IMG/VR virus record: IMGVR_UViG_2718217709_000003
From: a virus
Taxonomy: Duplodnaviria; Heunggongvirae; Uroviricota; Caudoviricetes
Strand: one strand, 5' to 3'
DNA: 53,807 nt
How positions within the stretch are numbered: position 1 is the first letter of the stretch; each line of letters opens with the position of its first letter. Below, piece by piece: positions 1-48,278 of the stretch. The notes under the pieces were generated by a model. It was not told the origin of the DNA. It did not search any database and saw nothing but the letters and a program-made list of their open reading frames with translations. The translations under genes and the position numbers were made by a program.

Positions 1-725
1 ATGACGGTCGCCCAGTGTCTCGACTACTGGTTCGACAACTACGTCTCTACAACTCTCAGAGAAAAGACCCAGGCACTTTACCGATCAACGGTTATGAAGC
101 GCATGCATGACGCCTTTCCTAATCGTCCGGCATCTTCTATCACGGTTAAGCAATGGGTTGACCTGCTTACCGAAGAAGAAAGAGATAATCCACGCCGAGC
201 AAGGCAGGTGCTAAGTCAACTAAGATCAGCAATAAGTTGGTGCATGCGGCGTCAGTTGATAGATAGTTGCGCAATTATGAGCATCCAACCAAGGGACTTC
301 GGCTCCCGCGCTGAGGTAGGGGATCGGGTACTGTCGTATCACGAACTGGCTAAGATTTGGCTTGCTATTGAAAGAAGCCGTGCGTCTACGTCAAATAAGC
401 TACTTCATCAGATGCTTATGCTGTGGGGGGCGAGGCTCTCAGAGCTTAGGCTGGCAACAAAGACAGAGTTTGACCTGCTGGACAACGTATGGACCGTACC
501 GAAAGAGCATAGCAAGATGGGTAATGTTATCCGCCGTCCAATCTTCGAACAAATTAAGCCTTTCCTCGAAAAGGCCATGACAACGTACAATGATGTTCTT
601 TTCCCTGGAGAAGACATAAACAAACCGATCAGCATCGCTGCAGCCAACCGATTCGTAAATAGAATAAGGGGAGGGATGGATATAGGTTACTGGCGAACAC
701 ATGATTTCAGAAGAACGCTTGTTAC
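1..725 (+). pseudogene. P4-type tyrosine integrase, 5' portion (runs off the window start; interrupted by IS100)
   Basis: Frame-1 translation ends in the integrase box ...WRTHDFRRTLVT before the reading frame enters IS sequence at 726; the 3' portion resumes after the IS. Confidence 0.7.
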
Positions 726-3028
<2,303 letters not shown>

Positions 3029-3227
3029 CTTAATTCTCCAGGCAAAAAGAAACCGCCATATAGCGGCTCTATCAGATATGTACAGGCCTCATCGAGTGTG
3101 AGGCTGTGTGATTTCTTTATTTCCACTCTTAATGTTTGTCAGTGAATGGTTTCTCTATCTCCATTAATGCCTTATTCATCTCATTTCGTAACTCTATAGC
3201 CATCCTGACGGCTTCAACCTGTGCAGG

Positions 3228-4286
3228 ATGTCGGTTATGGGCGATTTAGCCATGAGGGCTAACGTCGCTCTTTCTCAGGGACCGGAAGCCTACAGTAAAT
3301 TCATTACTGACAACAAGGACAGGTTAAATCGCGTTGGTGCTAATGCTGACTGGATGATTCAGACAGGTATCCAGAATCCAGAGCAGCTATCACACATGCT
3401 GACTACTATGTCTCTCGGTGCGCTTGGACCAGAAAAGGCGTTTGCTGTTCAGGATAAGATGGCTGGTCGTGAAATTGACCGAGGCAGGCTGGCAGAGACA
3501 ATCCGCAGCAATCAGGCTGGTGAAGCACTTCAGGCGAGAGGGCAAAACCTTTCCTATCAGTCAGCAATGACTGGGCACAATATCGCAGCACAACGCTTGG
3601 CTCTGGATCAGCAAGAGTTCGGGTTTAAGATGCAGCAAGCGCAGGAAAAGGCTCAGCAGTTGATTAGTGAAGCACCTAAGCTGTCAGTAAACATGGAAAA
3701 AGGCATCGAGACGGCTGTAAACAATGCCACAGCATCATCAAACTCAGCCAATTCTATGAGTGCGCTTGCTCAACAGTTCAGAGCAGAAAAACCAACGACA
3801 GGTTTGTTCGGTAACGCACAGAACATGTTCGCAAAACTTACCGGAAGCGATACGACATTGCGTGATTTGCGCATCCGCCAAAATGCCCTTGTTAACAGTC
3901 AGGTTCTTAAATTCCTACCTCCCGGCCCAGCAACGGATAAAGACGTTGAGATCGTTCGGCAGGGTGCGCCAACTGACATGGATAACCCTGAGACGGTCGC
4001 AAGATGGCTTGATGCAATGGCAAACCTTGAGCGACGAAACGCGCAGTTTAATGAGTTTAAAGCTGAGTGGATGAGCGCGAATGGCAATCCTGGACAATCG
4101 CGTAATGGCGGTCAGATATTGGGGTTGGATGTTAAAAAAGGTGAATCATTGGGGAGTGCCGTTAAGCGGTATATGTCATTGAATACTGACGCAGCGCCAG
4201 CACAAGATTCGACACCTTCAGGAGAACCACGGAATCAGGTTGGATCATATACCTCAAAATCAGGCATTCAATTTACGGTGGAATGA
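3228..4286 (+). CDS. Hypothetical protein (352 aa); possibly a P22 gp20-like ejection protein
   Basis: Long ORF rich in Ala/Gln/Asn, translationally coupled (ATGA overlap) to the next ORF; lies upstream of the immI region and tailspike where P22-like phages encode ejection proteins. Product is inferred from position only. Confidence 0.4.
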
Positions 4287-6124
4287 TGAAAGTAACTGCA
4301 AACGGTAAGACATTTACCTTCCCTGATGGTACGAGCACGGAAGATATTGGAGCCGCCATTGATGATTATTTTGCTGGTCAGGTTGTTCAGCAACAAACAG
4401 TTAATCAGGCCAATAATGCACCAGTACGTGAAGAACCATCATTGATGCAACAAGCTGGCGATTGGCTCACTGGTGGTCAAAGTGCAGGGCAAATTGCAGA
4501 ACAGGCTGGTCGTGGTCTGGTAAACATACCATTTGACGTATTGCAGGGTGGCGCAAGTCTGATTAATGCAATCAGTCAGGGGCTTGGTGGGCCAAAAGTT
4601 TTGGATGATGTTTATCGTCCAGTAGACAAACCGACAGACCCATACGCACAAGCCGGTGAAACAATTGGTGGGTATTTAGTTCCAGGAGTTGGAACGGCAG
4701 GAAGCATGGCTATTGGATCGCTGGCAGAGGCCGCAAATCAGAAAGGCGATTTCGCACAAAATGCAGCTAAAAATGCCGGAGTTAACCTTGCCGCTCAGGG
4801 TGTTCTTTCCGCAGCAGCAAAGGGAATAGGGCGTGGAATAACGGCTATAAAAGGTGATATTGCGCCAGAAGTGGCGAAGAAAATTGCCACATCAGAATCG
4901 ATGGGCGTGACACCAATGACATCTGATGTTATCCCGCCGAAAAATGCTTTCACTCGCGGCCTTACTCAGGATGCCGAGGGGGCTTTGCTCGGGACGGGCT
5001 CAAAGCGAGCAGAGCAATATGCAACGCGGAGTAAGCTGGTAAGCAATTATTTTGACCGTTTTGGTGAGTACAACCCTGATGATGTGGTGAAATCTCTGAC
5101 CACCACGTTAAGGGGGCGGAAGGATGCCGCTGGCGCTGTTATCAATGACGTCACCAATAAAATGGGTAATGCCGCAGTTGATACCACAAATACCATGAAT
5201 GCTCTGAATACAGCGATCGCAAGACAGGAACGGCTTGGGACGTCTGCCAATCAAAGCCTGCTTACATCCTTGCGTAACCTACGTGAAGAATTAGCAAACC
5301 CTGCAACTGATTTGGATGTTACGTTTGATCTCTTGCGTCAGCACAGAACAGCATTTAGATCTAATGTTCAGGGAGATGCTATGGTCTTCCCCAACCAGGC
5401 AAAAGCAGCTACCAATATGGTAGAGAATGCAATGTCAAAAGACCTTCGTAACGCAGTTGCTAAAAACCTCGGTGCATCAGACGCAGCAAAATACCTTAAA
5501 GCAAATTCCGATTATGCAAACGTTTATAATAAGGTGCTTAATAAAAACATTGCCAACAAGCTCAACAAGGCAAGCAGTGAAGCCAGTCCTGAACTTATAA
5601 ATACCGTTGTATTAAGCAGAAAACCATCTGACGTGAAACGAATCTGGAGCGCACTGGATGATAAGGGGAAAGATGCTATGCGTGCAGCTTACGTCAGCAA
5701 AATAGCGGAAAAGACCGGGGACTCTCCAGCCAAGTTCATCACTGAAGTTAATAAGCTGAAATCTCAGTCAGGCGGTGAAATTTACAACACTATTTTTTCT
5801 GGAAAGCACATGAAAGAGCTTGATGCTCTTCATGAAGTTCTACAGCAAACAGCAAGGTCAGACACCGCAAATGTAGTAACTCAGACGGGGCAATCGCAAG
5901 CCAACAGGATAAGGACGATTGGCGCAACTGCGACCCTTGGCGTATCAATGGGGCTTGAGGCTGGTTTTGGTGCAATGATGCGCTTGTATGAGTCCAAAGC
6001 AGCAAGGAATATGCTTCTTCGTTTGGCAAACACCAAAGCAGGAACACCAGCCTATGAAAGAGCGATAAATAACGCTGCGAATGCCATCAGACCGCTGTTT
6101 GCTACTGAGGCAACACAGCAGTAA
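4283..6124 (+). CDS. Hypothetical protein (613 aa); possibly a P22 gp16-like ejection protein
   Basis: Long Ala/Gly-rich ORF, about the size of P22 gp16, in the matching position before the immI region; assignment is positional. Confidence 0.4.
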
Positions 6125-6148
6125 CGTATGGGAAATTGGATTCAATCG

Positions 6149-6538
6149 CTAACATTTTCTTTTTACTTTTCCAACAAAAGCTTTGGTTGAATCCATATTT
6201 CCATAACCGGAAATGGTTTTTGACATTAAAACTGTTCCAGTAGGATGTATTACCCATGAGTCGATAACGCGTTGAGTTTCGCCATTCGCGCCGATTCCTA
6301 TGATGGAGTTTTTAGACAATGCTTTGTAAGCCATGCCGCCCGCATCTGTCCCAGAATATGTGATGCTGGCATCTTCACCGTTTGTCTTAATGATGAATGT
6401 TCCACTAAAACCATCTTCTTCCGGATGGAAATTATTTCGTTCTGAATAGCTTATTCCGCGCATATCTCCAACGACCCAGCACTCTGCTGTAGCCCCAAAA
6501 GATATGAATAAGAACATAGCAGTAAGAAATTGCTTCAC
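6149..6538 (-). CDS. Secreted protein of unknown function (129 aa, N-terminal signal peptide)
   Basis: N-terminus MKQFLTAMFLFISFGATA looks like a Sec signal peptide; sits where P22-like phages carry sieA. Confidence 0.5.
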   Translation of the reverse strand: MKQFLTAMFLFISFGATAECWVVGDMRGISYSERNNFHPEEDGFSGTFIIKTNGEDASITYSGTDAGGMAYKALSKNSIIGIGANGETQRVIDSWVIHPTGTVLMSKTISGYGNMDSTKAFVGKVKRKC

Positions 6539-6655
6539 GCCAACCTCCTTAGTTTTGAGCAGGATACCATGAAAAAAGTAAACATCTTTTGCCTACTTCA
6601 CATTTGAATGGTTTGTCATTAGGATGTTTCCGGTTTTTTAAATATGGAAATTGAT

Positions 6656-7075
6656 ATGAAGAGGATTATTGGCGTCGTTGCTGGCGCTATATTGTTATCT
6701 GGGTGCGCAACTATTGTTGGTGACGAAACGCAGCTTGTGCAAGTGAACAGCAATCCTTCCGGTGCGAGCTTTAAGGTAAAAGACGAATCAGGCGTGATTG
6801 TTGCGCAAGGTAAGACCCCGCAAGGAGTAACTCTTGCCAAGTCAGATGGTAGTTATTTTGGCAAAAAGAGCTACCAGATCACTATGGAAAAGGATGGGTA
6901 CGAACCAGTTACCCTGCCAATCAAAGCCAATGCTAATGGCTGGTATATTGGTGGAAACCTTGTGTTTGGTGGGTTAATTGGTTGGCTTGCTGTAGATCCT
7001 TTTAATGGTGGGATGTATACCTTGAAGCCAAAAGAGGCAAACGCATCTCTTATACCATCAACAAAGCAAGACTAA
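6656..7075 (+). CDS. Lipoprotein of unknown function (about 139 aa)
   Basis: Lipobox LLSGC after a hydrophobic N-terminus (MKRIIGVVAGAILLSGC); followed by a strong intrinsic terminator. Confidence 0.55.
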   Translation: MKRIIGVVAGAILLSGCATIVGDETQLVQVNSNPSGASFKVKDESGVIVAQGKTPQGVTLAKSDGSYFGKKSYQITMEKDGYEPVTLPIKANANGWYIGGNLVFGGLIGWLAVDPFNGGMYTLKPKEANASLIPSTKQD

Positions 7076-7083
7076 TAAATAGG

Positions 7084-7108
7084 ACCCACCTTCAGGTGGG
7101 TTTTTTGT
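7084..7108 (+). terminator. Rho-independent terminator after the lipoprotein gene
   Basis: GC stem cccacc-ttcag-gtgggt followed by a T run (ttttttg). Confidence 0.6.
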
Positions 7109-7343
7109 ACAAATCCTTCAGCGTATCAAATACCATCTTCTTAACAAGCTCTGACTGCTCATCAGCGAGTCGTTCTGCATCGTCGCGATATCCAGTCACA
7201 GGCGATGGTTTTGATAGAGCATCTTGGACGATTTGTAACAACTCGGAGTTCATTGATCTCCCATTCGCCTCCGCCCTGAATTTTAATTTCTCCCTTACTT
7301 CCATAGGCATACGGAAGTTAAAGTGCGGATCATCTCTAGCCAT
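7092..7343 (-). CDS. mnt: Mnt repressor (ribbon-helix-helix), P22 immI region
   Basis: 83-aa protein MARDDPHFNFRMPMEVREKLKFRAEANGRSMNSELLQIVQDAL... matches P22 Mnt as I recall it. Confidence 0.85.
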   Translation of the reverse strand: MARDDPHFNFRMPMEVREKLKFRAEANGRSMNSELLQIVQDALSKPSPVTGYRDDAERLADEQSELVKKMVFDTLKDLYKKPT

Positions 7344-7370
7344 GCCATCACTCCAAGTTAGTGTATTGAC

Positions 7371-7391
7371 ATGATAGAAGCACTCTACTAT
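7371..7391. promoter_or_regulatory. Arc operator overlapping the Pant promoter
   Basis: ATGATAGAAGCACTCTACTAT matches the P22 arc operator; a TTGACA -35 hexamer sits immediately upstream (7366-7371). Confidence 0.7.
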
Positions 7392-7400
7392 ATTCTCAAT

Positions 7401-7417
7401 AGGTCCACGGTGGACCT
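7401..7417. promoter_or_regulatory. Mnt operator (17-bp palindrome)
   Basis: AGGTCCACGGTGGACCT is a perfect palindrome matching the P22 Omnt sequence. Confidence 0.7.
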
Positions 7418-7433
7418 ATATTGTGAGGTGAAT

Positions 7434-7595
7434 ATGAAAGGAATGAGCAAGATGCCGCAGTTCAATTTGCGGTGGCCTAAAGAAGTATTGGATTTGGTCC
7501 GCAAGGTGGCGGAAGAGAATGGTCGGTCTGTTAACTCTGAGATTTATCAGAGAGTAATGGAAAGCTTTAAGAAGGAAGGGCGCATTGGCGCGTAA
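7434..7595 (+). CDS. arc: Arc repressor (53 aa)
   Basis: [53 protein letters not shown]; the ORF track extends it upstream, but the ATG at 7434 gives the canonical 53 aa. Confidence 0.85.
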
Positions 7596-7663
7596 AGTTG
7601 AAGCCCCAACTGCGGGAACAGTCAGGGCTTCGGTTGTCAGTAAATCCGTGGAGAAAAACCAAC

Positions 7664-8566
7664 ATGAATAGTATAGCAATTTTAGAAGCAGTGAACACCT
7701 CTTATGTACCATTCAACGGTCAGCAAATTATCACCGCCATGGCTGCCGGAGTTGCATATGTTGCGATGAAGCCAATCGTTGAAAACCTTGGAATGAGCTG
7801 GTCAACGCAGCAAACAAAACTCATGAAGCAGATTAGCAAATTCAACTGTGTTCATATGAACATGGTTGCCGCTGATGGGAAGCTTCGTAAGCTACTCTGC
7901 CTTCCTTTGAAGAAGTTAAATGGATGGCTGTTCAGCATCAACCCTGAGAAAGTTCGTGCTGACATCCGTGATAAACTGATTCAGTACCAGGAAGAATGCT
8001 TTACTGTACTGCATGACTACTGGACAAAGGGAAAGGCAGAAAATGCACGTAAGAAAACATCTGTTGATGACAGGACTCCGCTTCGTGATGCTGTAAATAT
8101 GCTAGTCAGCAAAAAGCATCTAATGTACCCAGAAGCTTATGCAATGATTCATCAGCGTTTCAATGTGGAAAGTATTGAAGAGCTTGATGCATCTCAGATA
8201 CCGCAAGCCGTAGAGTACATCCACAGGGTAGTGCTTGAAGGTGAATTTATCGGCAAACAAGAGAAGAAAACCAACGAGCTTTCTGCAAAAGAAGCAAACA
8301 GCCTTGTATGGTTATGGGATTATGCCAACCGCTCACAGGCATTATTCCGCGAACTGTATCTGGCGCTAAAACAAATTCAATCGAACTATTCCGGCAGATG
8401 CTACGACTACGGTCATGAATTCTCGTATGTTATCGGAATGGCGAGAGACGTTTTAATAAACCACACACGAGATGTTGATATTAATGAGCCAGACGGACCA
8501 ACGAATCTTTCCGCATGGATGAGACTTAAGAATAAAGAATTGCCTCCTTCAGTACATAACTACTGA
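7664..8566 (+). CDS. ant: Antirepressor Ant (300 aa)
   Basis: Directly downstream of arc as in P22 immI; start taken at MNSIAIL, which gives 300 aa. Confidence 0.7.
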
Positions 8567-8585
8567 CAGATAACCAACGCAACGA

Positions 8586-8609
8586 CCCAGCTTCGGCTGG
8601 GTTTTTTTA
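8586..8609 (+). terminator. Rho-independent terminator after ant
   Basis: Stem acccagc-ttcg-gctgggt followed by tttttttat. Confidence 0.6.
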
Positions 8610-8666
8610 TGCCCAAAATTCACCGTAGCTACGCTGCGGCGATTCCTTGTATCTGGAGCAAATTAA

Positions 8667-11168
8667 ATGACAGACATTACAGCCAATGTTGTAGTAAGCA
8701 TGCCTTCGCAACTCTTCACTATGGCGCGTTCTTTTAAAGCCGTAGCCAATGGCAAAATTTATATCGGTAAAATTGACACTGACCCGGTAAATCCTGAAAA
8801 CCAGATTCAGGTCTATGTGGAGAACGAAGACGGCTCTCACGTTCCTGTTGCACAGCCAATCGTCATCAATGCCGCAGGGTATCCAGTATATAACGGACAG
8901 ATTGCCAAATTCGTTACCGTGCAAGGCCATTCTATGGCTGTTTATGATGCGTATGGTGCTCAGCAGTTCTATTTTCCTAATGTGCTGAAGTATGATCCAG
9001 ATCAACTACGTGCACAACTTTTAAGCCCATTGGATGGACTTGGAGATAACCTTGTTAACGTAAAGCAACCAGGCATGTCGTCAGACAGAAGAACTGTTCA
9101 TGATAAAATGATTGAGTCAATCAGCATAGCTGATTACATTGTAAATGACAGCAGCATAACAAATGCAATTATAAATGCCTTAAGTTCAAACGTAGGAACT
9201 ATAATTATTCCTCCTGGTGAGTTTGTTGCAAACCCGTCAATAAAAGATGTTTCTGGATTATTTAAGTTGTTTTCAAGATGTGAGTTAAGGGGGCGGCTTA
9301 CAGTTAATATTCCTCCTGGCTATTCATATTTTACAGAAAAGACCATTGTTAGTTGTATAGGCGCCCATAATTTGACAATTAAGGGTGTCAAATATGAAAC
9401 ATCAATAACATCACTTGTATCAGTTGCTGGTTCGAAGAAAAATTATTCTGTAACGATATCGCTTTCTGATGCTTCAAATGTTTCTGTTGGTGATTATATC
9501 ATAATTAGACATGACGTTTCAGGAACCGGTGCATATCACATGCACTGTGGAGGATGGAAAGTACTGTCAGTTTCTGGAGCAAATGTTACAGTAAATAATA
9601 CTTGCCATCTTGATAACTTCCCTGAATCGACATTAACTGGAGGATCGGTATCTATAATTAAGTCGGTTCTCAAATATACTGGTTGTGATGGTTTTGCCGT
9701 GTCAGGTGGTGATTGTATTAATACAATTGATGGTGTAGCCATTGTTGGTGATTACTCGGTAGCAGAATCTATAGGCACAATTGGAGCGCATGGGTTCACT
9801 ATTGCCACGCCTGATATAACAATTGATGAACCAGATCCATCAAATAAAGTATTTGACATGTCTGGTAATTTAGCAATTGGTCCTGATATTGTTATATCAG
9901 GGTGGGGGGAGCAGGGATTTGTTGCTTCTGGTCGAGCAGGTGTTGTATGTAATTTTATAGCTTCATCATCTAATAGAAAGCGCGGTATTTACGCGGAAGG
10001 AGCTCATATCAGAGGAAAATTCATGGTTTGCTCTGGTAATGGTGAAGATGGGATTATATCTGATATCGGTGGTGCGATTCAGGCCAACGGATCTGTATGC
10101 TCAGGAAATGGGTTGAATGGGTTCTGGTCATTTAATAACAGTGAGTTAAGCGCGCCAAATGGTGTTGCGTGTGGTAACTCAACAAATGGTATTGAGGCCA
10201 GGGCGTTATCAAAAGTTAATTTCGAAAACGGTAGATCATATCTAAATGCCAGAAATGGAGTATCAGCGTCATATGGTGGAAACATAGCTTTCACTGGTGG
10301 AACATCTAGCGATAATGTAATAGATGGTATCTATTCTGTTTACAACGCAACAGTAGCAGCTAATAATGCAAGTTCGAAAAACAACAGAAGGTATGGTGTT
10401 AACTGCACAGATTCTATGATAGTTATGACTGGTAGCGGAGATGTGTCAGGAAATGTTGCTGCAAACTATATAGATAACGGTGGCGGGGTAATTATAGATA
10501 CGGAAGGAGAGGTGATTCCTGTTAATGCACATCCGCAGAGAAATCTCATGCTGAGGAATGCAACAACTCTTTCTGGTTGTGATATTTCACCTTCATCAAT
10601 TGGTGATATTACCATTTCGTTAAAAAGCTCTCCTTCTGCAGATTTAAGTGATCGTTATGTTTTTAAAGCCGATGGAACTCAGCATCCATCTGGTGATGCA
10701 ACCCAAAATTTGGGGCGCGCGAGCAACAGATATAATGTTGGATATTTTGCCGGAGGTACGCAATCAAGTTCTGATGCAAGACTCAAGACAGCAGTTAGAG
10801 GTATGACCGCTGATGAAATAAATGCCGCAATGAAGATTGCAGAAGTTCTAGGTTTTTGGTCTTGGATTGATGATGAATCTAAAAGACTGCATGCTGGAAC
10901 GACTGTTCAGAAAGTTATTGCAATACTTGAGGAGAATAATCTTGATTGGAAAAAATACGGATTTATTGGTTATGATGCTTGGGATGATGAATTTGAATAT
11001 GTTACTGAAATTGATGAATTTGGAAACTTAGTTAAGAATGGAGAGATGAAGTTGATTAGAGCGGCTGGTGATCTTTGGCAGTTTAGAGATCAGGAGCTTG
11101 ATAGATTTATAATGAGAGGTCTTTTCGAAAGAATTAGAAAGCTTGAAGAATCGTTATACCAAAGATAG
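8667..11168 (+). CDS. Tailspike (833 aa): P22-type head-binding N-terminus, beta-helix receptor domain, C-terminal intramolecular chaperone
   Basis: First ~110 aa ([59 protein letters not shown]...[15 protein letters not shown]) match the P22 gp9 N-terminus; central SGNG/GxNG repeats typical of a parallel beta-helix; C-terminus ...[11 protein letters not shown]...GFWSWIDDE... resembles the peptidase S74 autochaperone. Confidence 0.8.
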
Positions 11169-11282
11169 TAATATCAATGGGTATAATCATTTCTATATAA
11201 AAAACAGATAACCAGCAAATATCACACAAAGCTTTGCACTGGATTGCAAGGCTTTGTGCTCTTCGATAGTGGTTAAGGCGGA

Positions 11283-11351
11283 TCACTCCACCTTTTCATC
11301 AATCCAGTCCGCCCACCATTGCATCATTTCTCTGCGCTTATCGTGGCAGAT
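11283..11351 (-). pseudogene. 3'-terminal fragment of a P4-family integrase gene
   Basis: Last ~22 codons ...SICHDKRREMMQWWADWIDEKVE* resemble the conserved C-terminal tail of P4-type integrases; upstream codons are not integrase-like. Confidence 0.45.
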
Positions 11352-11931
11352 AGATGCCTCACTATCACACGGTGATGGTTCATTACTGGTTTGCATAATG
11401 GATAGAGAACTGCGGATAAAAGATATCCCAAAACCCCAAAATCTCATCTTTAGGGGTTGCAGAAAGGGAGGCGTGAACAAATACCTGCGCATGAAAACGG
11501 AACTAGTCCAGATGTGATGTTTGTGGTGATCACATACATCATTAACGATGCTCGTTATGGTGAGTTTGATGACTACCCGCTGAAGTAAAAATTGTGTTGT
11601 GTACCAAATTGCGTACCAAACTAAAATCACAAATCATGAAGCCCTTGTTCATGGCGGTTCTCAGTGGTGTTGCGCGTAATCGTGAAACAAAAAGGTAGAT
11701 TGTTGCTTACCGTCATTCATCATTAGGTTAAATCCGTTATTTCTGCTGTCTGCCAGAGTATCAAATATCACCGTGCTAATCAGCTTTAGCGCGACAATTT
11801 GGCAGCGAGTGACAACAGATCATGTCAGATAAAAATGAGATAGTAGTCACATTTTCTTGCACTTTATTCCAGCCAGTTCATAAGTATTTCCGTAAAAAGA
11901 ACAGCTATTTGAAACACCTGAGGGTTTGCTG

Positions 11932-11957
11932 TTGAAACGCCGTCTTATTATTGCTGC
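11932..11957 (+). pseudogene. dacD: dacD 5' fragment (first ~9 codons, TTG start), cut by IS2
   Basis: Encodes (M)KRRLIIAA, then IS2 begins; the rest of the signal peptide (SLFVFNLSSGFA) resumes at 13289. Confidence 0.7.
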
Positions 11958-11968
11958 TGGATTTGCCC

Positions 11969-12874
11969 CTATATTTCCAGACATCTGTTATCACTTAACC
12001 CATTACAAGCCCGCTGCCGCAGATATTCCCGTGGCGAGCGATAACCCAGCGCACTATGCGGATGCCATTCGTTATAATGCTCGAACGCCTCTGCAAGGTT
12101 CTTTGCTGCCGTTAACCCGTCTGGTTTGGGCATGATACTGATGTAGTCACGCTTTATCGTTTTCACGAAGCTCTCTGCTATTCCGTTACTCTCCGGACTC
12201 CGCACCGCCGTGTTCTTCGGTTCAAGTCCCAACATCCGGGCGAACTGGCGTGTTTCATTAGCCCGGTAGCATGAACCATTATCCGTCAGCCACTCCACTG
12301 GAGACGACGGAAGATCGTTGCCGAAGCGGCGTTCCACCGCTCCCAGCATGACGTCCTGTACTGTTTCACTGTTGAAGCCGCCGGTAGTGACCGCCCAGTG
12401 CAGTGCCTCACGATCACAGCAGTCCAGCGCGAACGTGACACGCAGTCTCTCTCCGTTATCACAGCAGAACTCGAACCCGTCAGAGCACCATCGCTGATTG
12501 CTTTCTTTCACGGCCACTCTGCCTGTATGTGCCCGTTTCGATGGCGGTACAGCAGGTTTTCGCTCAAGCAACAGCGCATTCTGGCGCATGATCCGGTAAA
12601 CACGTTTGGCATTGATCGCAGGCATACCATCAAGTTCTGCCTGTCTGCGAAGCAGCGCCCATACCCGACGATAACCATACGTGGGCAGCTCTCCGATAAC
12701 ATGGTGTATACGGAGAAGCACATCCGTATCATCAGTGTGACGACTGCGGCGGCCATCCATCCAGTCATCGGTTCGTCTGAGAATGACGTGCAACTGCGCA
12801 CGCGACACCCGGAGACAACGGCTGACTAAGCTTACTCCCCATCCCCGGGCAATAAGGGCGCGTGCGCTATCCAC
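11969..12874 (-). CDS. insD: IS2 transposase InsD (OrfB, 301 aa)
   Basis: IS3-family DDE transposase ORF within the IS2 boundaries. Confidence 0.85.
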
Positions 12875-13197
12875 TTTTTTGCCCGTCCATATTCAACGGC
12901 TTCTTTGAGGAGTTCATTTTCCATCGTTTTCTTGCCGAGCAGGCGCTGGAGTTCTTTAATCTGCTTCATGGCGGCAGCAAGTTCAGAGGCAGGAACAACC
13001 TGTTCTCCGGCGGCGACAGCAGTAAGACTTCCTTCCTGGTATTGCTTACACCAGAGAAATAACTGGCTGGCTGCTACACCATGTTGCCGGGCAACGAGGG
13101 AGACCGTCATCCCCGGTTCAAAGCTCTGCTGAACAATTGCGATCTTTTCCTGTGTGGTACGCCGTCTGCGTTTCTCCGGCCCTAAGACATCAATCAT
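12832..13197 (-). CDS. insC: IS2 InsC (OrfA, 121 aa)
   Basis: [40 protein letters not shown]... HTH protein; overlaps insD in the usual frameshift arrangement. Confidence 0.85.
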
Positions 13198-13288
13198 CTG
13201 TTCTCCAATGACTAGTCTAAAAACTAGTATTAAGACTATCACTTATTTAAGTGATACTGGTTGTCTGGAGATTCAGGGGGCCAGTCTA

Positions 13289-43065: not shown

Positions 43066-43416
43066 TTAAAGCCCCATCGCAACAGCCAGACAGACCGCTG
43101 CAACAATCAGTGCACGGCGGATTAACGCAGCAGAAAACACCAGGTGAAGGCCGGTCTGTACCGGGAAACGCCCATCAGCCATCAGCCTGTCGTCATGTTT
43201 CAGGTACTGACCGGGACGGGCTTTGGGGAAGAGCGAACGGTCAAGCCAGTAACCCAGCACTGCTGCCAGCGTGATGAGTGCCAGCTTGTAGATCACAACA
43301 GGCAACTGCTGTGGCGAGACCAGAGCGATGGTGCCCAGCAACAGCACTGAGGTCAGCAGCCAGCCGCTGAGGCGAGGTTTTTTAACAGGGGGAATGAATT
43401 TTTTCAGGTTTTTCAT
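43066..43416 (-). CDS. Putative holin / lysis membrane protein (about 116 aa)
   Basis: Predicted multi-TM small protein immediately upstream of the endolysin at the head of the late operon. Confidence 0.4.
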   Translation of the reverse strand: MKNLKKFIPPVKKPRLSGWLLTSVLLLGTIALVSPQQLPVVIYKLALITLAAVLGYWLDRSLFPKARPGQYLKHDDRLMADGRFPVQTGLHLVFSAALIRRALIVAAVCLAVAMGL

Positions 43417-43546
43417 GTGTGTCTCCTTGTCTGGTGGAGACAGCATCACAAATACAGGGCGCGAAGGATTTTAAAGCGCGTTAAGAGAGCCGGGGATACG
43501 GGATGTGCAGGATAAACGATGAATTATTCACAGAGGAGAATACGAT

Positions 43547-44290
43547 ATGACGCAGACACTGAATCCGGTCATCACTGTCACCGTGTCCGGTCCTGTGGGC
43601 AGCGGTAAAAGTTACATATTGGCGCGGATAGAGGAAGTGGTGAAACAGGAATTCGGGGGCAGCGTCATTGTCGATGCTGCAGACGTAGATGATGAGCGGC
43701 GTATGAGTGGCGATGATCTGACGACCTGGCAGAAGCCACGGGGTGGCACAGTGATCAGGCTGGAGGAATACACGGGACAGGGCCTGTTGTCATACGGCGA
43801 GGAGCGTATCTGTCGGACGAATGAGCTGCTGGATGTTATATGCCCCACGGGCCGGCAACCCTGGATACTGCCCGATGCACTGCATGCCACCATTGCGGCA
43901 CTGATGACAGTTTACGATCAGGAGCTGCTCATGAAGGAGCTACGTAAACTCACCGGTCAGCCAACAGAATGTTTTTCTGCCCCGAAGTACGGGAAACAGG
44001 AACACATCCCGGTGAACACGCTCCCCGTTAACCAGCCTCCCCGGTTCTTCGACGAATACATTCTGACACCGGAAAATAAAGCTGAGCACGAAGAGATCAA
44101 AGCGGCGTTGTTCCGGGAAATCAGGAAGATTGCTGAAATGCAACTGGGGGGCGGGCTGGACAGAGTGATGGCGAGAGGAGAATGGGAGTCGCTGTTTGAA
44201 AGAGTTTCCCCGGAATTACTTCCCCTCGCACTGGCTATCGGGATTATGCAGACAGCGGATAAACCTCACTTACGTTCATTAAACACGTAA
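43547..44290 (+). CDS. P-loop NTPase-like protein of unknown function (247 aa)
   Basis: Walker A motif GPVGSGKS at residues 15-22 and a Walker B-like hhhhD stretch (SVIVDAAD); strong SD (GAGGAG) upstream; diverges from the late operon. Confidence 0.55.
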   Translation: MTQTLNPVITVTVSGPVGSGKSYILARIEEVVKQEFGGSVIVDAADVDDERRMSGDDLTTWQKPRGGTVIRLEEYTGQGLLSYGEERICRTNELLDVICPTGRQPWILPDALHATIAALMTVYDQELLMKELRKLTGQPTECFSAPKYGKQEHIPVNTLPVNQPPRFFDEYILTPENKAEHEEIKAALFREIRKIAEMQLGGGLDRVMARGEWESLFERVSPELLPLALAIGIMQTADKPHLRSLNT

Positions 44291-44670
44291 CGCATAATCC
44301 GGGATACGCATTCAGCGATGACTGCATTTTCACCGGTTTTTACTGCATCCAGAAGTGACTCTTTAAATGGTACGGGCCGGGGCTGCAGAAAGGTCGGCAT
44401 GGCATTGAGCAGACAGAGCGTTTTTTCCGTGAGGACGACATCAGCCGCTCCCACAGCCAGCAACTGAGAGTAACGAATATAGCTGTTATCCCGAAGCCAT
44501 ATCAGCGTATCAATAAAACACCGGCACTTTTTCTGGTCGTGATCAACCTGGTCCGGGATATCGAAAAAACCAGAATAAATCAAAACCTGAGGTGCCGGAT
44601 GCGTGTTCAGTAATCGGCAGAATATTTTGCCGGTGAGTACATAAAAATCATCATTTAAGGAGTGCATCAT
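44266..44670 (-). CDS. Hypothetical Cys-rich protein (134 aa); real status uncertain
   Basis: ORF overlapping the 3' end of the P-loop gene convergently (25 nt) and the start of the next + strand ORF; weak RBS. Confidence 0.3.
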   Translation of the reverse strand: MMHSLNDDFYVLTGKIFCRLLNTHPAPQVLIYSGFFDIPDQVDHDQKKCRCFIDTLIWLRDNSYIRYSQLLAVGAADVVLTEKTLCLLNAMPTFLQPRPVPFKESLLDAVKTGENAVIAECVSRIMRYVFNERK

Positions 44671-44884
44671 GAATCCCCGATTAACGTTAACAGAACATCA
44701 GCGCCGTGCTGAAGCAGTGAACAATGTTCTGGAAGATATTATCCGGTTATACCGCGGAGAACTGAGTGTCTGTCGTGCCGCTTTTCATTTTCAGGGAATA
44801 CAAAAGCAGTTTGATACTTCTGTTTTTGCAGAAGGTATTACTTATGCCCTGGACCGGATAAGGTCAGAAAATCGCCCCGGATAA
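44669..44884 (+). CDS. Hypothetical small protein (71 aa)
   Basis: Strong SD (AAGGAG) 6 nt upstream of the ATG. Confidence 0.45.
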   Translation: MNPRLTLTEHQRRAEAVNNVLEDIIRLYRGELSVCRAAFHFQGIQKQFDTSVFAEGITYALDRIRSENRPG

Positions 44885-45074
44885 TCCCTAAACCACATTA
44901 ACAGAAATCCCGCCATCCCTGCCGCATCATGAAAGAACGACCAGCCCGGCACCCGAAAGCCGGGCTGGTCATCGCCCCACAGGAATGCGCTGTGAGCCGA
45001 CCAAGGTTCAGTCAGTCTCGCGAGACCTGACCAGACTGCCATATTTTTTAATAATTGTAAAAGGCTTACAGATT

Positions 45075-45839
45075 ATGAAAATGCAGACATTACCCATCGT
45101 GCCGTGGATTGGTGGCAAACGCCGCCTTGCAAAACACATTCTGCCGCTGTTTCCGGCGCATGAATGTTATGTGGAGCCGTTTTGTGGGGCAGCAGCGCTC
45201 TATTTTCTTAAGACACCCGGCAAGATCGAAGTCATCAATGATATCAACGGTGAACTGGTGAATCTGTACCGGGTGGTAAAGCATCACCTGGAAGAATTTG
45301 TCCGCCAGTTCAAATGGGCGCTGGTCAGCCGTCAGATCTACAAATGGCTGCAGATCACCCCGGAAGAAACACTGACGGATATCCAGCGTGCGGCACGGTT
45401 CTACTACCTTCAGAAGCAGGCGTTTGGCGGCAAGGTGGCAGAGCACAGCTTCGGTACCTCCACCACATCCCCGCCACGCTTCAACCTGCTACGTATTGAA
45501 GAAGAACTGTCAGCGGCACACCTGCGGCTTTCCAGAACAGTCATAGAACACATGGACTGGCAACAGTGCATTGAGCGTTATGATCGTCCGCACACGCTGT
45601 TCTACTGCGACCCACCGTACCTGGGTACGGAAGGCTATGGTGTGGATTTTCCTGAAGGGAACTACTCGCGGCTGGCAGAGCTGGCCCGGTGCATCAGAGG
45701 AAAAATGATAATTTCGGTGAACGACATCCCGCAGATGCGCGAGGTGTTCACTGGACTGAACATACAGACAGTGAATATCAACTACAGTCTGGCGGGTAAA
45801 CCCACGCCGCGCCGTGAACTGCTAATCTGCAACTTCTGA
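45075..45839 (+). CDS. DNA adenine methyltransferase, Dam-like (about 254 aa)
   Basis: Motif I (EPFCGAAALYF) and catalytic DPPY motif (FYCDPPYLGTEGYG); start taken at MKMQTLPIVPWIGGKRRL. Confidence 0.85.
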   Translation: MKMQTLPIVPWIGGKRRLAKHILPLFPAHECYVEPFCGAAALYFLKTPGKIEVINDINGELVNLYRVVKHHLEEFVRQFKWALVSRQIYKWLQITPEETLTDIQRAARFYYLQKQAFGGKVAEHSFGTSTTSPPRFNLLRIEEELSAAHLRLSRTVIEHMDWQQCIERYDRPHTLFYCDPPYLGTEGYGVDFPEGNYSRLAELARCIRGKMIISVNDIPQMREVFTGLNIQTVNINYSLAGKPTPRRELLICNF

Positions 45840-45846
45840 AACAAAA

Positions 45847-45869
45847 CCGGAAAGCACAATGCTTTCCGG
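45847..45869. terminator. Bidirectional hairpin terminator between the Dam gene and the repressor gene
   Basis: ccggaaagc-acaat-gctttccgg perfect stem between convergent genes. Confidence 0.55.
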
Positions 45870-45955
45870 TAAACCAAACAACTTCCACTATGTCACTGGC
45901 GATGTTTTCTGAAAGCATCCAGATCAACCACCTGTCCTTTGTGTCCGGGTCAGTA

Positions 45956-46312
45956 TCAGCCTGCGATTTTTCCTGGTTTTGGCTGAGTATAGAATCGCCC
46001 AATCTCAAGAAATGAGCGTTGTTGGTCTGGTGTCATGTCGTCAAAAGTATCTATTAGTTTTTGTTTTTCTGGGGAAATTTGATTCTGGTTTCTAGTCATA
46101 CCATCTGTGCTCATTCCAGTGAGCAACCAATTTACATCAACATTAAACTCTTGATGCATCTTTAACAGAAACTCCCCTCCAGGCATCGCCTTTCCATTTT
46201 CAATCTGACTGATACCACCATTAGAAATACCTAAGCGAGCTGCAAATTCTCTCTGGTTCAACCCTGCTTTCTTCCTCACAGAAATAACGCGCTCTCCTAT
46301 ATCTTTGCTCAT
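45956..46312 (-). CDS. Phage repressor, HTH XRE family (118 aa)
   Basis: HTH LNQREFAARLGISNGGISQIENGK; divergent from the Ner-like gene as in the Mu c/ner arrangement. Confidence 0.75.
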   Translation of the reverse strand: MSKDIGERVISVRKKAGLNQREFAARLGISNGGISQIENGKAMPGGEFLLKMHQEFNVDVNWLLTGMSTDGMTRNQNQISPEKQKLIDTFDDMTPDQQRSFLEIGRFYTQPKPGKIAG

Positions 46313-46405
46313 AAAAGTGAATCTCTATCTTGATATGCTCATAATTATGAGCAATAATCTAACACATATAAGGCAAACATCATTGCATCAACAAAGGAGA
46401 CAACG

Positions 46406-46594
46406 ATGACTGCAGAACAAGTCAAAGCTCTCTTCCGCCAGCGCGGGATCACTTTCACCCGCTGGGCAGAAGAAAACGGCTACAACCGCAATGAGGTATA
46501 CCGCGTTCTCAACGGGCAGACCAAAGCCCGTTACGGTAAATCCCATGAAATCGCCGTGAAGTTGGGACTGAAATCAACAGCTCAGGCGGCCTAA
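46406..46594 (+). CDS. Ner-like DNA-binding protein (62 aa)
   Basis: Small HTH protein resembling Mu Ner / Nlp (...NEVYRVLNGQTKARYGKSHEIAVKLGLK). Confidence 0.6.
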   Translation: MTAEQVKALFRQRGITFTRWAEENGYNRNEVYRVLNGQTKARYGKSHEIAVKLGLKSTAQAA

Positions 46595-46965: not shown

Positions 46966-47886
46966 ATGGGACGTACCAAATCACCGATTAACACTGAACT
47001 GAACGCCGATGTACCGCTGTCGGATGATCTCAACGTCAGCCTGAATGCCATGACACAGCATCGCATGGAGATCATGCAGCAGTTTGGTGATGGACTGCCT
47101 TATGAACGTGAACGCATCGTTCACGAAGCACGTTTTTATATGGCGCAGAGTGCTGAATCTATGTTGGAAGCGGGTAAGCGGCTGATCATCTTAAAAGAAA
47201 ATGAACCGCATGGTGATTTCACAAATATTCTGGAAAACGACCTCGGATTAGCACCACAGGTAGCTCGTCGCATGATGCAGGCCAGCGTGAAATTTCTCGG
47301 CAATGGAGATGAACAGCCAAAACGCTCAGCGCTGAGCGTTTTGGGAAAAACCAAGTTATATGAACTGATGGTTCTGGATGACGAAGAACTCGACGCATTA
47401 GCTGATGGTGGAACCGTCGCCGGTGCAACGCTTGATGATATTGATCGCATGACCAGCCGCGAACTGAAGGCCGCCCTGCGTGAAGCGCGCGAAACCAACG
47501 CAGCTCAGCAACAGGTGCTTGCCGGAAAGGACGAAAAAATCAACGAACTGGCCACAAAACTGGAGAAGAAATCGCGCCTGCAACCTCCGCCGCCAGACGA
47601 AGAACTGAAAAAATTGCGGGCGGAAGTGACGGCATTAGCGGTTGAGGCCGAATCGGCTATCGCCGTCCGGCTGTCCAGTGTTTTTGAGACCCTGTGTGAA
47701 TACTGCACCAAAAACATGATCGATACCCCCAGAGATTTCATGGCCGGTCTGGTCTGCCAGATTGAACGCAGTGTTCATGCATTACGTGAGACGTTTGACC
47801 TTGAGGCCGCTCCATCGGGTAACGATGCCCCCGCCTGGCTGACCGAACCGGAACCTGAAATCAACCGACCGGAGGATATGCAGTAA
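46966..47886 (+). CDS. Hypothetical early protein (306 aa)
   Basis: Coiled-coil-rich ORF in the early operon with SD AAGGAG upstream; no transposase-like motifs. Confidence 0.5.
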   Translation: MGRTKSPINTELNADVPLSDDLNVSLNAMTQHRMEIMQQFGDGLPYERERIVHEARFYMAQSAESMLEAGKRLIILKENEPHGDFTNILENDLGLAPQVARRMMQASVKFLGNGDEQPKRSALSVLGKTKLYELMVLDDEELDALADGGTVAGATLDDIDRMTSRELKAALREARETNAAQQQVLAGKDEKINELATKLEKKSRLQPPPPDEELKKLRAEVTALAVEAESAIAVRLSSVFETLCEYCTKNMIDTPRDFMAGLVCQIERSVHALRETFDLEAAPSGNDAPAWLTEPEPEINRPEDMQ

Positions 47887-48278
47887 TGAATACGAATAAC
47901 ACACAAAATACCCTGATGGACAGCCCGGAGGCACTGGGGCACGCACTGTGTAATCTGCTGCCGGAGATGGTGCAGGGTTTCCGCGTGGTGACCCCTTCCG
48001 GTGAAATCTGCGTACCCGCACAGGAGACGCACCCGTTTGTACTGACGATGATTACGCTATCAGGTAACAGCCGGAAATTAAAAGCCTGCCGAATATCTGC
48101 CAGATACCTTTTTGCCCGCGCCTTTTTTAAGAACGTCAGGCCGGGGATCACAATTGGTGTTATTGCCGGACGCGAACAGGTTGAAAAATACATGTCAGGT
48201 GCATGGTGGAATAACGACCCTGTCATTGCTGCCCGTAATATTCATATCAGTTGGGGGGATATTCAGAATGACGGCTGA
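47886..48278 (+). CDS. Hypothetical early protein (130 aa)
   Basis: ORF coupled to the preceding gene. Confidence 0.4.
   Translation: MNTNNTQNTLMDSPEALGHALCNLLPEMVQGFRVVTPSGEICVPAQETHPFVLTMITLSGNSRKLKACRISARYLFARAFFKNVRPGITIGVIAGREQVEKYMSGAWWNNDPVIAARNIHISWGDIQNDG

Follow-up and report, generated by a model that had tools for sequence, protein, structure and literature searches.

A three-gene prophage cassette of Escherichia coli centred on a winged-helix gene and its small partner, with overlapping start codons

Introduction

Divergent pairs of a repressor and a small regulator are well known as the switches of temperate phages, with lambda CI/Cro, P2 C/Cox and, with face-to-face promoters, 186 CI/Apl as examples. 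A further precedent is BstA, reportedly described by Owen et al. in 2021 as a prophage defence with built-in self-immunity through an aba element; BstA is said to be a single large protein, and its antidote a DNA element. In the present work we analyze a stretch of 53,807 nucleotides from the IMG/VR virus record IMGVR_UViG_2718217709_000003 (Caudoviricetes), hereafter the window, and focus on a small gene cassette located between the lysis genes and the repressor gene of a prophage of Escherichia coli. Overlapping divergent transcripts have been shown to give mutually exclusive expression, an arrangement termed the excludon (PMC12288877). With regard to location, the gpA-gpQ locus of P2 has been documented as a hotspot of defence genes (Rousset et al. 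2022, PMC9122126), while comparable accessory slots are the gp18-gp20 slot of BcepMu and the gene 11-12 slot of KS10 (PMC2628397).

The core of the cassette is a predicted winged-helix gene, ORF134, and a small divergent gene, ORF71 (ORF, open reading frame), whose start codons overlap, accompanied by a gene for a P-loop protein, ORF247, which carries a domain related to the small partners of ORF134 homologs in other phages:

43488-44929, both strands: three-gene cassette ORF247-ORF134-ORF71, a single insertion/deletion unit in comparison with E. coli MS20655
43547-44290, plus strand: ORF247 (phrog_3787), mosaic P-loop protein of 247 amino acids (aa)
44266-44670, minus strand: ORF134 (phrog_2266), predicted winged-helix domain followed by a C-terminal helical hairpin; the sole minus-strand gene of the cassette
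44668-44671: CATG junction, where the start codons of ORF134 (minus) and ORF71 (plus) overlap by 2 nt
44669-44884, plus strand: ORF71 (phrog_4490), 71 aa, small helical partner of ORF134

In its geometry the cassette resembles excludons: the genes are divergent, their 5' regions are necessarily complementary because of the start-codon overlap, and the putative plus-strand unit covers ORF134 in antisense over its full length. In the excludons described so far, the overlap falls in untranslated regions and involves a long antisense RNA, whereas the intergenic distance is zero here and the ribosome-binding sites lie inside the first codons of the partner. As in CI/Cro-type switches, a larger protein of helix-turn-helix (HTH) type and a protein of ~70 aa are encoded divergently, with promoters that are necessarily convergent. 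Unlike those switches, the pair lacks an intergenic operator region, no DNA-binding fold could be detected in the small partner, the partner domain is also found in P-loop fusions, and the pair is accessory to a prophage that has its own repressor and Cro-like genes. The logic proposed below for the cassette, a lysogen-active factor neutralized when the resident prophage goes lytic, would be shared with BstA; we know of no sequence similarity between BstA and ORF134, nor of a defence phenotype of the latter. The slot in the window is, like the P2 hotspot and the BcepMu-type slots, a short locus between conserved phage genes with a high turnover of content, but in contrast to hotspot cargo the three cassette genes match no described defence or anti-defence family. 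The start-codon-overlapping pair and the domain link to a P-loop protein appear undescribed, and a search of the available literature on RefSeq protein accessions and on DUF2513, a UniRef name carried by some ORF134 relatives, returned nothing relevant.

Results

A divergent gene pair joined at its start codons

A first-pass annotation of the window had listed four ORFs in this interval (the three above and a Dam-like methyltransferase), with a Walker A motif GPVGSGKS in the 247-aa product and a strong ribosome-binding site in front of the 71-aa ORF, all of which were recovered, the latter being AAGGAG 7 nt 5' of the ORF71 ATG. ORF134 had been described as an antisense-overlapping, Cys-rich ORF. 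The overlaps exist, by 2 nt with ORF71 and by 25 nt with the 3' end of ORF247, to which ORF134 lies tail to tail, but ORF134 is not antisense to a coding region, and its cysteines are not conserved among homologs. At the junction, the Shine-Dalgarno sequence of each gene sits inside the first codons of its partner, in ORF134/ORF71 as well as in their relatives.

Both proteins belong to phage families of unknown function, ORF134 matching phrog_2266 (3e-44) and ORF71 matching phrog_4490 (7e-53). An AlphaFold model of ORF134 based on a 40-sequence alignment (pLDDT 85.6, pTM 0.81) confidently predicts a winged-helix protein, with the winged helix-turn-helix fold evident in the model. A Foldseek search with this model against the PDB and viral models gave no significant match, no HTH family in Pfam and the other family collections matched ORF134, and six family members, including the Serratia protein named DUF2513, gave no Pfam match at E <= 1, the DUF2513 model included.

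The junction is retained in the intact loci examined from E. coli-type, Serratia-type, P2-like and Pseudomonas-type prophages. The first scan covered the E. coli type, one Serratia-type locus and about 42 P2-like loci, and all 52 of the intact loci found with ORF134 had the CATG junction and a divergent ORF of 63-86 aa. Among species-level genome loci, mostly from Pseudomonas, the CATG pair was present in 10 of 25; in an eleventh locus, from Kushneria, a partner of the SPD family (defined below) stands back to back with the winged-helix gene, but the exact CATG is missing. With only the small partner as query, 30 of the 32 loci recovered had the winged-helix gene next to it, and 29 showed CATG. 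The ratio of non-synonymous to synonymous variation (pN/pS) in P2-like phages was 0.16 for the ORF134 homologs and 0.32 for the small partners, the corresponding values for Pseudomonas being 0.39 and 0.37; since the homologs are under purifying selection, ORF134 and its small partner are considered to be genes and not chance ORFs. One further candidate, a 106-aa ORF beside the P-loop gene of a Pseudomonas-type phage, resembled the N-terminus of ORF134 by eye and was rejected, as the family hidden Markov model (HMM) did not reach E = 1e-3.

The genomic setting of the pair differs between phage types. Of 19 Pseudomonas-type phage loci, 18 carry the winged-helix gene between those for the large terminase and the portal as the only gene in antisense orientation, with the small partner co-directional with the late (head) operon, and the layout in the window is the same. 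In P2-like phages, the pair is found at the portal-proximal edge of the gpA-gpQ hotspot, and a variable set of genes separates the winged-helix gene from gpA. A retron type VI reverse transcriptase with HTH, a SoFic-like protein (SoFic/PDC-S04), HEC-06/Orf5 (DUF262-like) and PDC-M48 A/B directly adjoin the winged-helix gene in four such loci (L018, L038, L043 and L044). The pair persists in P2-like phages while the neighbouring cargo turns over.

The P-loop protein and its partner-type domain

ORF247 matches phrog_3787 (4e-164), again a phage family of unknown function, and was divided into the following parts:

43547-43774, plus strand: mini P-loop N-terminal domain, residues 1-76
43865-43957, plus strand: internal helical module, residues ~107-137, LPDALHATIAALMTVYDQELLMKELRK
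44072-44287, plus strand: C-terminal domain, residues ~176-247, homologous to SPD

SPD is the name given here to the small partners of ORF134-family genes in Pseudomonas and Pectobacterium, which share the family motif QLtGrmDWVRARtYW...LaeAL. An HMM of the Pseudomonas partners scored the ORF247 C-terminus (approximately the last 70 residues) at 30 bits. In an independent profile comparison, the Pectobacterium partner matched positions 175-228 of phrog_3787 (E = 2e-5), and a 102-aa ORF of locus L017 matched positions 176-230 (E = 1e-7). The C-terminus of ORF247 is accordingly predicted to be a partner-type (SPD) domain, so that ORF134 is bracketed on the opposite strand by the weakly SPD-like ORF71 and the SPD-containing ORF247. 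SPD homologs are found as a 102-aa ORF convergent on the winged-helix gene in the Serratia-type locus, and as the C-termini of several ORF247 relatives. A search of PDB sequences with the SPD profile gave nothing credible. In two ORF247 relatives (P0041 and P0048), two tandem SPD copies follow the P-loop domain.

Residues 1-76 are the sole widely conserved part of ORF247, and relatives fuse this mini domain to many recombining C-termini. The conserved domain of ~75 aa has three predicted strands in the order strand, GPxGSGKS, helix, strand, W..P loop, and a strand ending in EE. The Walker A motif comprises residues 15-22; among 44 relatives Gly20 and Lys21 are invariant and Ser22 is found in 40. 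After strand 2, 30 of 40 relatives have an acidic residue. Curated P-loop families in Pfam and NCBIfam gave only sub-threshold matches, the best being AAA_30 (17.1 bits vs a cut-off of 27). Known P-loop proteins match ORF247 over the Walker A region only, and likewise a profile search of PDB sequences with the ORF247 relatives returned Walker A segments alone. A single-sequence AlphaFold model of ORF247 was poor (pLDDT 45). The helical module LPDALHATIAALMTVYDQELLMKELRK recurs elsewhere within ORF247 relatives and in a 108-aa protein. Two matches from the exhaustive protein search, one to an immunoglobulin-repeat protein of 2018 aa and one to a protein with FG-GAP repeats, were discarded as repeat artefacts. 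The mini P-loop domain also occurs on its own, as a 70-aa protein encoded just upstream of the terminase genes in an unrelated phage (L071, 3986-4198).

A separable unit in a variable cargo slot

A sequence identical to the window is carried by E. coli FORC_031, and the region holding the cassette and the dam gene is 98% identical to Escherichia phage PhiKM (Bcepmuvirus), by which the element is identified as a BcepMu-like (Mu-like) transposable prophage of E. coli. The similarity to PhiKM stops at 48050, within a 105-aa gene that follows a DUF3102 gene (window 47886-48100). No match to the PhiKM transposase was found anywhere in the window, and B-like genes are likewise lacking from the prophage, which is therefore a defective remnant. 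Of 5426 complete E. coli genomes, 627 match the region and ~480 have all of it; the cassette is present in about one tenth of complete E. coli genomes, sampled ST131 strains among them.

The gene order is holin, ORF247, ORF134, ORF71, Dam, a hairpin at 45846-45870, and the repressor, and the slot is delimited by two minus-strand genes:

43066-43416, minus strand: holin, first gene of the lysis/late genes
45956-46312, minus strand: HTH repressor

The prophage's own repressor and Cro-like genes together span 45956-46594, with the Cro-like and early genes on the plus strand. Comparison of related E. coli prophages indicates that the holin-repressor interval is a variable cargo slot, and the slot sits between the repressor and holin genes in BcepMu and KS10 as well. 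Other cargo fills it in UPEC129, MS20655 and three further loci (L062-L064). In UPEC129, ORF247 is shared for the first 155 codons only, followed by different genes and a different repressor. In MS20655, ~32 bp replaces window positions 43488-44929, and Dam comes directly after the conserved intergenic block; because of this replacement, ORF247, ORF134 and ORF71 are taken as one insertion/deletion unit separate from Dam. Two viral contigs (L059 and L060, around 5055) have a 318-bp deletion corresponding to window 44299-44616, which removes ORF134 codons 19-124 and leaves ORF247, ORF71 and Dam intact. An E. coli-type viral contig (L012, 4073-4600) contains a second ORF134 paralog (27% identical) inserted between Dam and ORF71, as well as a duplicated piece of the 5' end of Dam. 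The slot holds two separable units, Dam and a three-gene cassette built around ORF134.

The interval had been read in the first-pass annotation as a single four-gene accessory module, a view that does not survive the occurrence of Dam without the other three genes, of the pair without Dam or the P-loop gene, and of prophages with ORF134 cleanly deleted. Its judgement that the position is typical of cargo agrees with the variable slot in E. coli prophages, BcepMu and KS10, and with the pair homologs in the P2 gpA-gpQ defence hotspot. The absence of an obvious morphogenetic role was also borne out, as family searches detected none in morphogenesis, replication or packaging; in particular, the P-loop protein showed no homology to a phage structural, replication or packaging protein. 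Nor could any described system be assigned. Pfam, NCBIfam and PADLOC returned no family for the three ORFs, for which PHROGs offered unknown-function families only, and the defence-system prediction suggested for the locus gave no PADLOC system for them: with PADLOC-DB 2.0, ORF134 and ORF71 had no match and ORF247 had just mad8 (E = 0.005) and SngB (E = 0.03). Known toxin-antitoxin and anti-defence families did not match the cassette. The alternative slot cargo of other strains was similarly without match to known defence systems, with two exceptions from the slot of MS20655 (L101, 3525-5740), one being a 401-aa protein whose match is KwaA-like but weak (E = 8e-5) and the other an NA37 nucleoid-associated protein; these may constitute another uncharacterized cargo pair.

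Discussion

A possible lysogeny-linked toggle

Of the genes that the first-pass annotation regarded as expressible in the lysogen, the topology of the cassette suggests that only ORF134 behaves as a lysogen-expressed gene, with ORF247, ORF71 and Dam on the probable lytic-transcript strand. In the mechanism that we propose, ORF134 would be made in the lysogen from its own minus-strand transcript, and the plus-strand transcript, running from ORF247 into ORF71 and possibly on into Dam, would be antisense to the entire ORF134. As each ribosome-binding site complements the first codons of the partner, the ORF134 and ORF71 mRNAs would have to pair across both start sites, and expression should therefore be mutually exclusive in an excludon-like manner. 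At the lytic turn, SPD-type proteins, either free (ORF71) or fused to a nucleotide-binding P-loop domain (ORF247), would bind the winged-helix protein and thereby neutralize or retarget it. The likely output would be control over an activity specific to the lysogen, for example the exclusion of other phages or the regulation of hotspot cargo, that needs to be off during the prophage's own lytic growth. We put forward this combination of a lysogen-expressed winged-helix factor, lytic-phase partners and mutually exclusive antisense expression tentatively, judging its probability to be somewhat short of even. That the pair represents a widespread, undescribed two-gene toggle of prophages, in which a winged-helix protein and SPD are exclusively expressed, a lysogen-specific activity is switched off at both the RNA and the protein level upon lytic growth, and P-loop-SPD fusions act as a nucleotide-dependent off-switch, is a more doubtful proposition, although a possible one.

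If true, the cassette would be a compact and portable device that ties a gene product to lysogeny and removes it in lytic growth, and as it is found beside P2-like defence cargo and is common in E. coli, it could bear on how prophage immunity spares its own phage. The start-codon overlap would moreover provide a simple sequence signature for finding further cassettes. Should the proposed logic fail, a variable cargo slot of a common E. coli prophage has still been mapped, with Dam set aside as ordinary.

Several observations weigh against the toggle. In P2-like phages the winged-helix gene is co-oriented with the upstream terminase and portal genes, and the lone-antisense topology is therefore not universal. 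The ORF134 residues expected at the DNA contact are not conserved and the P2-like members are acidic, as read from the alignment, for which reason the protein may bind protein rather than DNA. The similarity between ORF71 and SPD is weak (3.7 bits directly; hhalign P = 2.5e-4, probability 43%), and beyond these direct scores the link is made by transitivity through a 73-aa protein of locus L017; the small partners of P2-like phages have no detectable similarity to SPD. A recognizable partner is missing from about half of the species-level ORF134 homologs. Prophages lacking ORF134 retain ORF71, which may thus have a separate role. Finally, promoter scans found no sigma-70 promoter upstream of ORF247, and no conserved one within ORF134 or the small-partner gene.

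Alternative explanations

The pair could instead be a compact phage life-cycle switch of the repressor/Cro or C/Cox type that times its neighbours, such as lysis, head or cargo genes, and plays no role in conflict between phages, which we regard as possible, if rather unlikely. A divergent pair encoding a winged-helix protein of 134-155 aa and a helical protein of 63-86 aa does resemble the immunity switches, partly as a matter of general knowledge; the pair stands beside the probable lysis promoter in the window and inside the head operon in Pseudomonas phages; and in P2-like phages it stays while the adjacent cargo changes. Such a switch is, however, difficult to reconcile with the absence of the pair from most P2-like phage records (10 matches besides PhiKM in the phage collection) and from several BcepMu-like prophages, with a junction at which no conserved operator-like repeats were found, and with the unconserved DNA-contact residues.

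An anti-defence locus, in which host immune proteins would be inhibited by ORF71 and by the helical modules of ORF247, with ORF134 as a transcriptional regulator like the anti-CRISPR-associated Aca proteins and Dam as an anti-restriction methylase, is possible at a distinctly low probability. At non-synonymous sites, the small partners change at roughly twice the rate of the winged-helix gene, the ORF247 relatives are chains of exchangeable small helical modules, the genes are phage-borne and adjoin a methylase, and ORF71 and Dam are kept upon loss of ORF134, all of which would fit. Known acr-aca operons, on the other hand, are co-directional as a matter of general knowledge, whereas the cassette genes are divergent with overlapping starts and ORF134 matched no HTH family (the Aca profiles themselves were not among the models). 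Furthermore, conservation of the SPD motif between Pseudomonas and E. coli fits a conserved phage partner better than varied host targets, and no solved or annotated protein proved to be similar.

We give only a slight chance to ORF134 and ORF71 being a toxin-antitoxin or abortive-infection pair, possible as this is for a two-gene module that is mobile between unrelated prophages, occurs in defence hotspots and has one small partner. The genes are divergent and form no operon, and the toxin and antitoxin models of PADLOC, Pfam and NCBIfam were all without match. The loss of ORF134 with ORF71 intact, together with the solitary ORF134 homologs, implies that neither gene is lethal alone in those backgrounds, which counts against this explanation.

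Lastly, one integrated defence system of all four genes, with the P-loop protein as motor or sensor, accessory proteins and self-marking by Dam in the manner of restriction-modification or BREX, is unlikely even though the genes occur together in about 480 E. coli genomes, in a slot of variable cargo and with a methylase beside a P-loop protein, a layout common in defence (general knowledge), because the parts separate freely (Dam alone in MS20655, the pair with neither Dam nor the P-loop gene in P2-like and Pseudomonas phages, ORF134 deleted in L059 and L060, the P-loop gene with other cargo in L062-L064 and UPEC129) and PADLOC gives no match, with ORF247 sub-threshold and Dam hitting generic methylase models only; in addition, no nuclease domain was found in the cassette proteins and the P-loop domain is just ~75 aa.

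Flanking elements and the methylase

The remaining features of the slot are as follows:

43417-43546: intergenic region between holin and ORF247, with conserved blocks GTCTCC..GGAGAC, TTTTAAAG and GCAGGAT
44939-44970: hairpin with a perfect 12-bp G+C-rich stem (z = -4.5 and -5.4), U-rich tail on the minus strand only
45075-45839, plus strand: Dam, 254 aa from the RefSeq start (the ORF spans 44985-45839), D12-class N6-adenine methyltransferase with DPPY
45846-45870: hairpin terminator between Dam and the repressor (z = -7.2 on the plus strand, -3.7 on the minus strand)

The blocks in the intergenic region are common to diverged BcepMu-like prophages and probably represent an activator-dependent late/lysis promoter. 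The ribosome-binding site of the holin gene is overlapped by an inverted repeat, GTCTCC-N9-GGAGAC (43417-43450), likewise conserved in diverged BcepMu-like prophages; folding of this repeat in the mRNA could mask the holin start. Neither a LexA box nor an Rfam family was found in the region.

The first-pass annotation had placed a bidirectional terminator after Dam. The hairpin at 45846-45870 is real, but its U-tract is found on the minus strand only; it is therefore clearly the terminator of the repressor gene, and bidirectional action is uncertain. A second strong hairpin, at 44939-44970, had gone unmentioned. Situated between ORF71 and Dam, it forms the right-hand boundary of the cassette and is kept in the MS20655 variant, in which Dam comes first.

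The methylase was correctly recognized as Dam-type from the outset, but it is an ordinary orphan phage methylase and a unit separate from the cassette, not part of a common module. It passes PF02086 (101.4 bits vs a cut-off of 22) and TIGR00571 (116.6 bits vs 114.85), has the catalytic DPPY in the translation (...LFYCDPPYLGTEGY...), and is 62-66% identical to orphan methylases of temperate phages of Burkholderia, Pseudomonas and Halomonas (e.g. gp25 of Burkholderia phage KS9 and the enzyme of Halomonas phage phiHAP-1). It is not an orthologue of the host Dam (PRK10904), scoring 67 bits with NF008152 vs a cut-off of 441. No cognate endonuclease was found beside it, its neighbours being ORF71 and the repressor, and hence it does not form a type II restriction-modification system with an adjacent gene. 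Most likely, the enzyme would methylate the phage DNA, and possibly that of the host, for restriction escape or regulation.

Other features of the window

A second prophage, P22-like, survives in part at positions 1-13200 of the window (ejection protein, Arc, Ant, tailspike); IS100 and IS2 interrupt it, and a truncated integrase flanks it. A LexA-box-like sequence, CTGTATATAAAAACAG, at 14521-14536 lies just 5' of the host gene sbmC, and reflects ordinary host regulation unrelated to the cassette. At the prophage end (17600-19800), a Gin-like recombinase gene is located beside opposed tail-fibre gene segments, in a layout resembling the invertible host-range segment of Mu.

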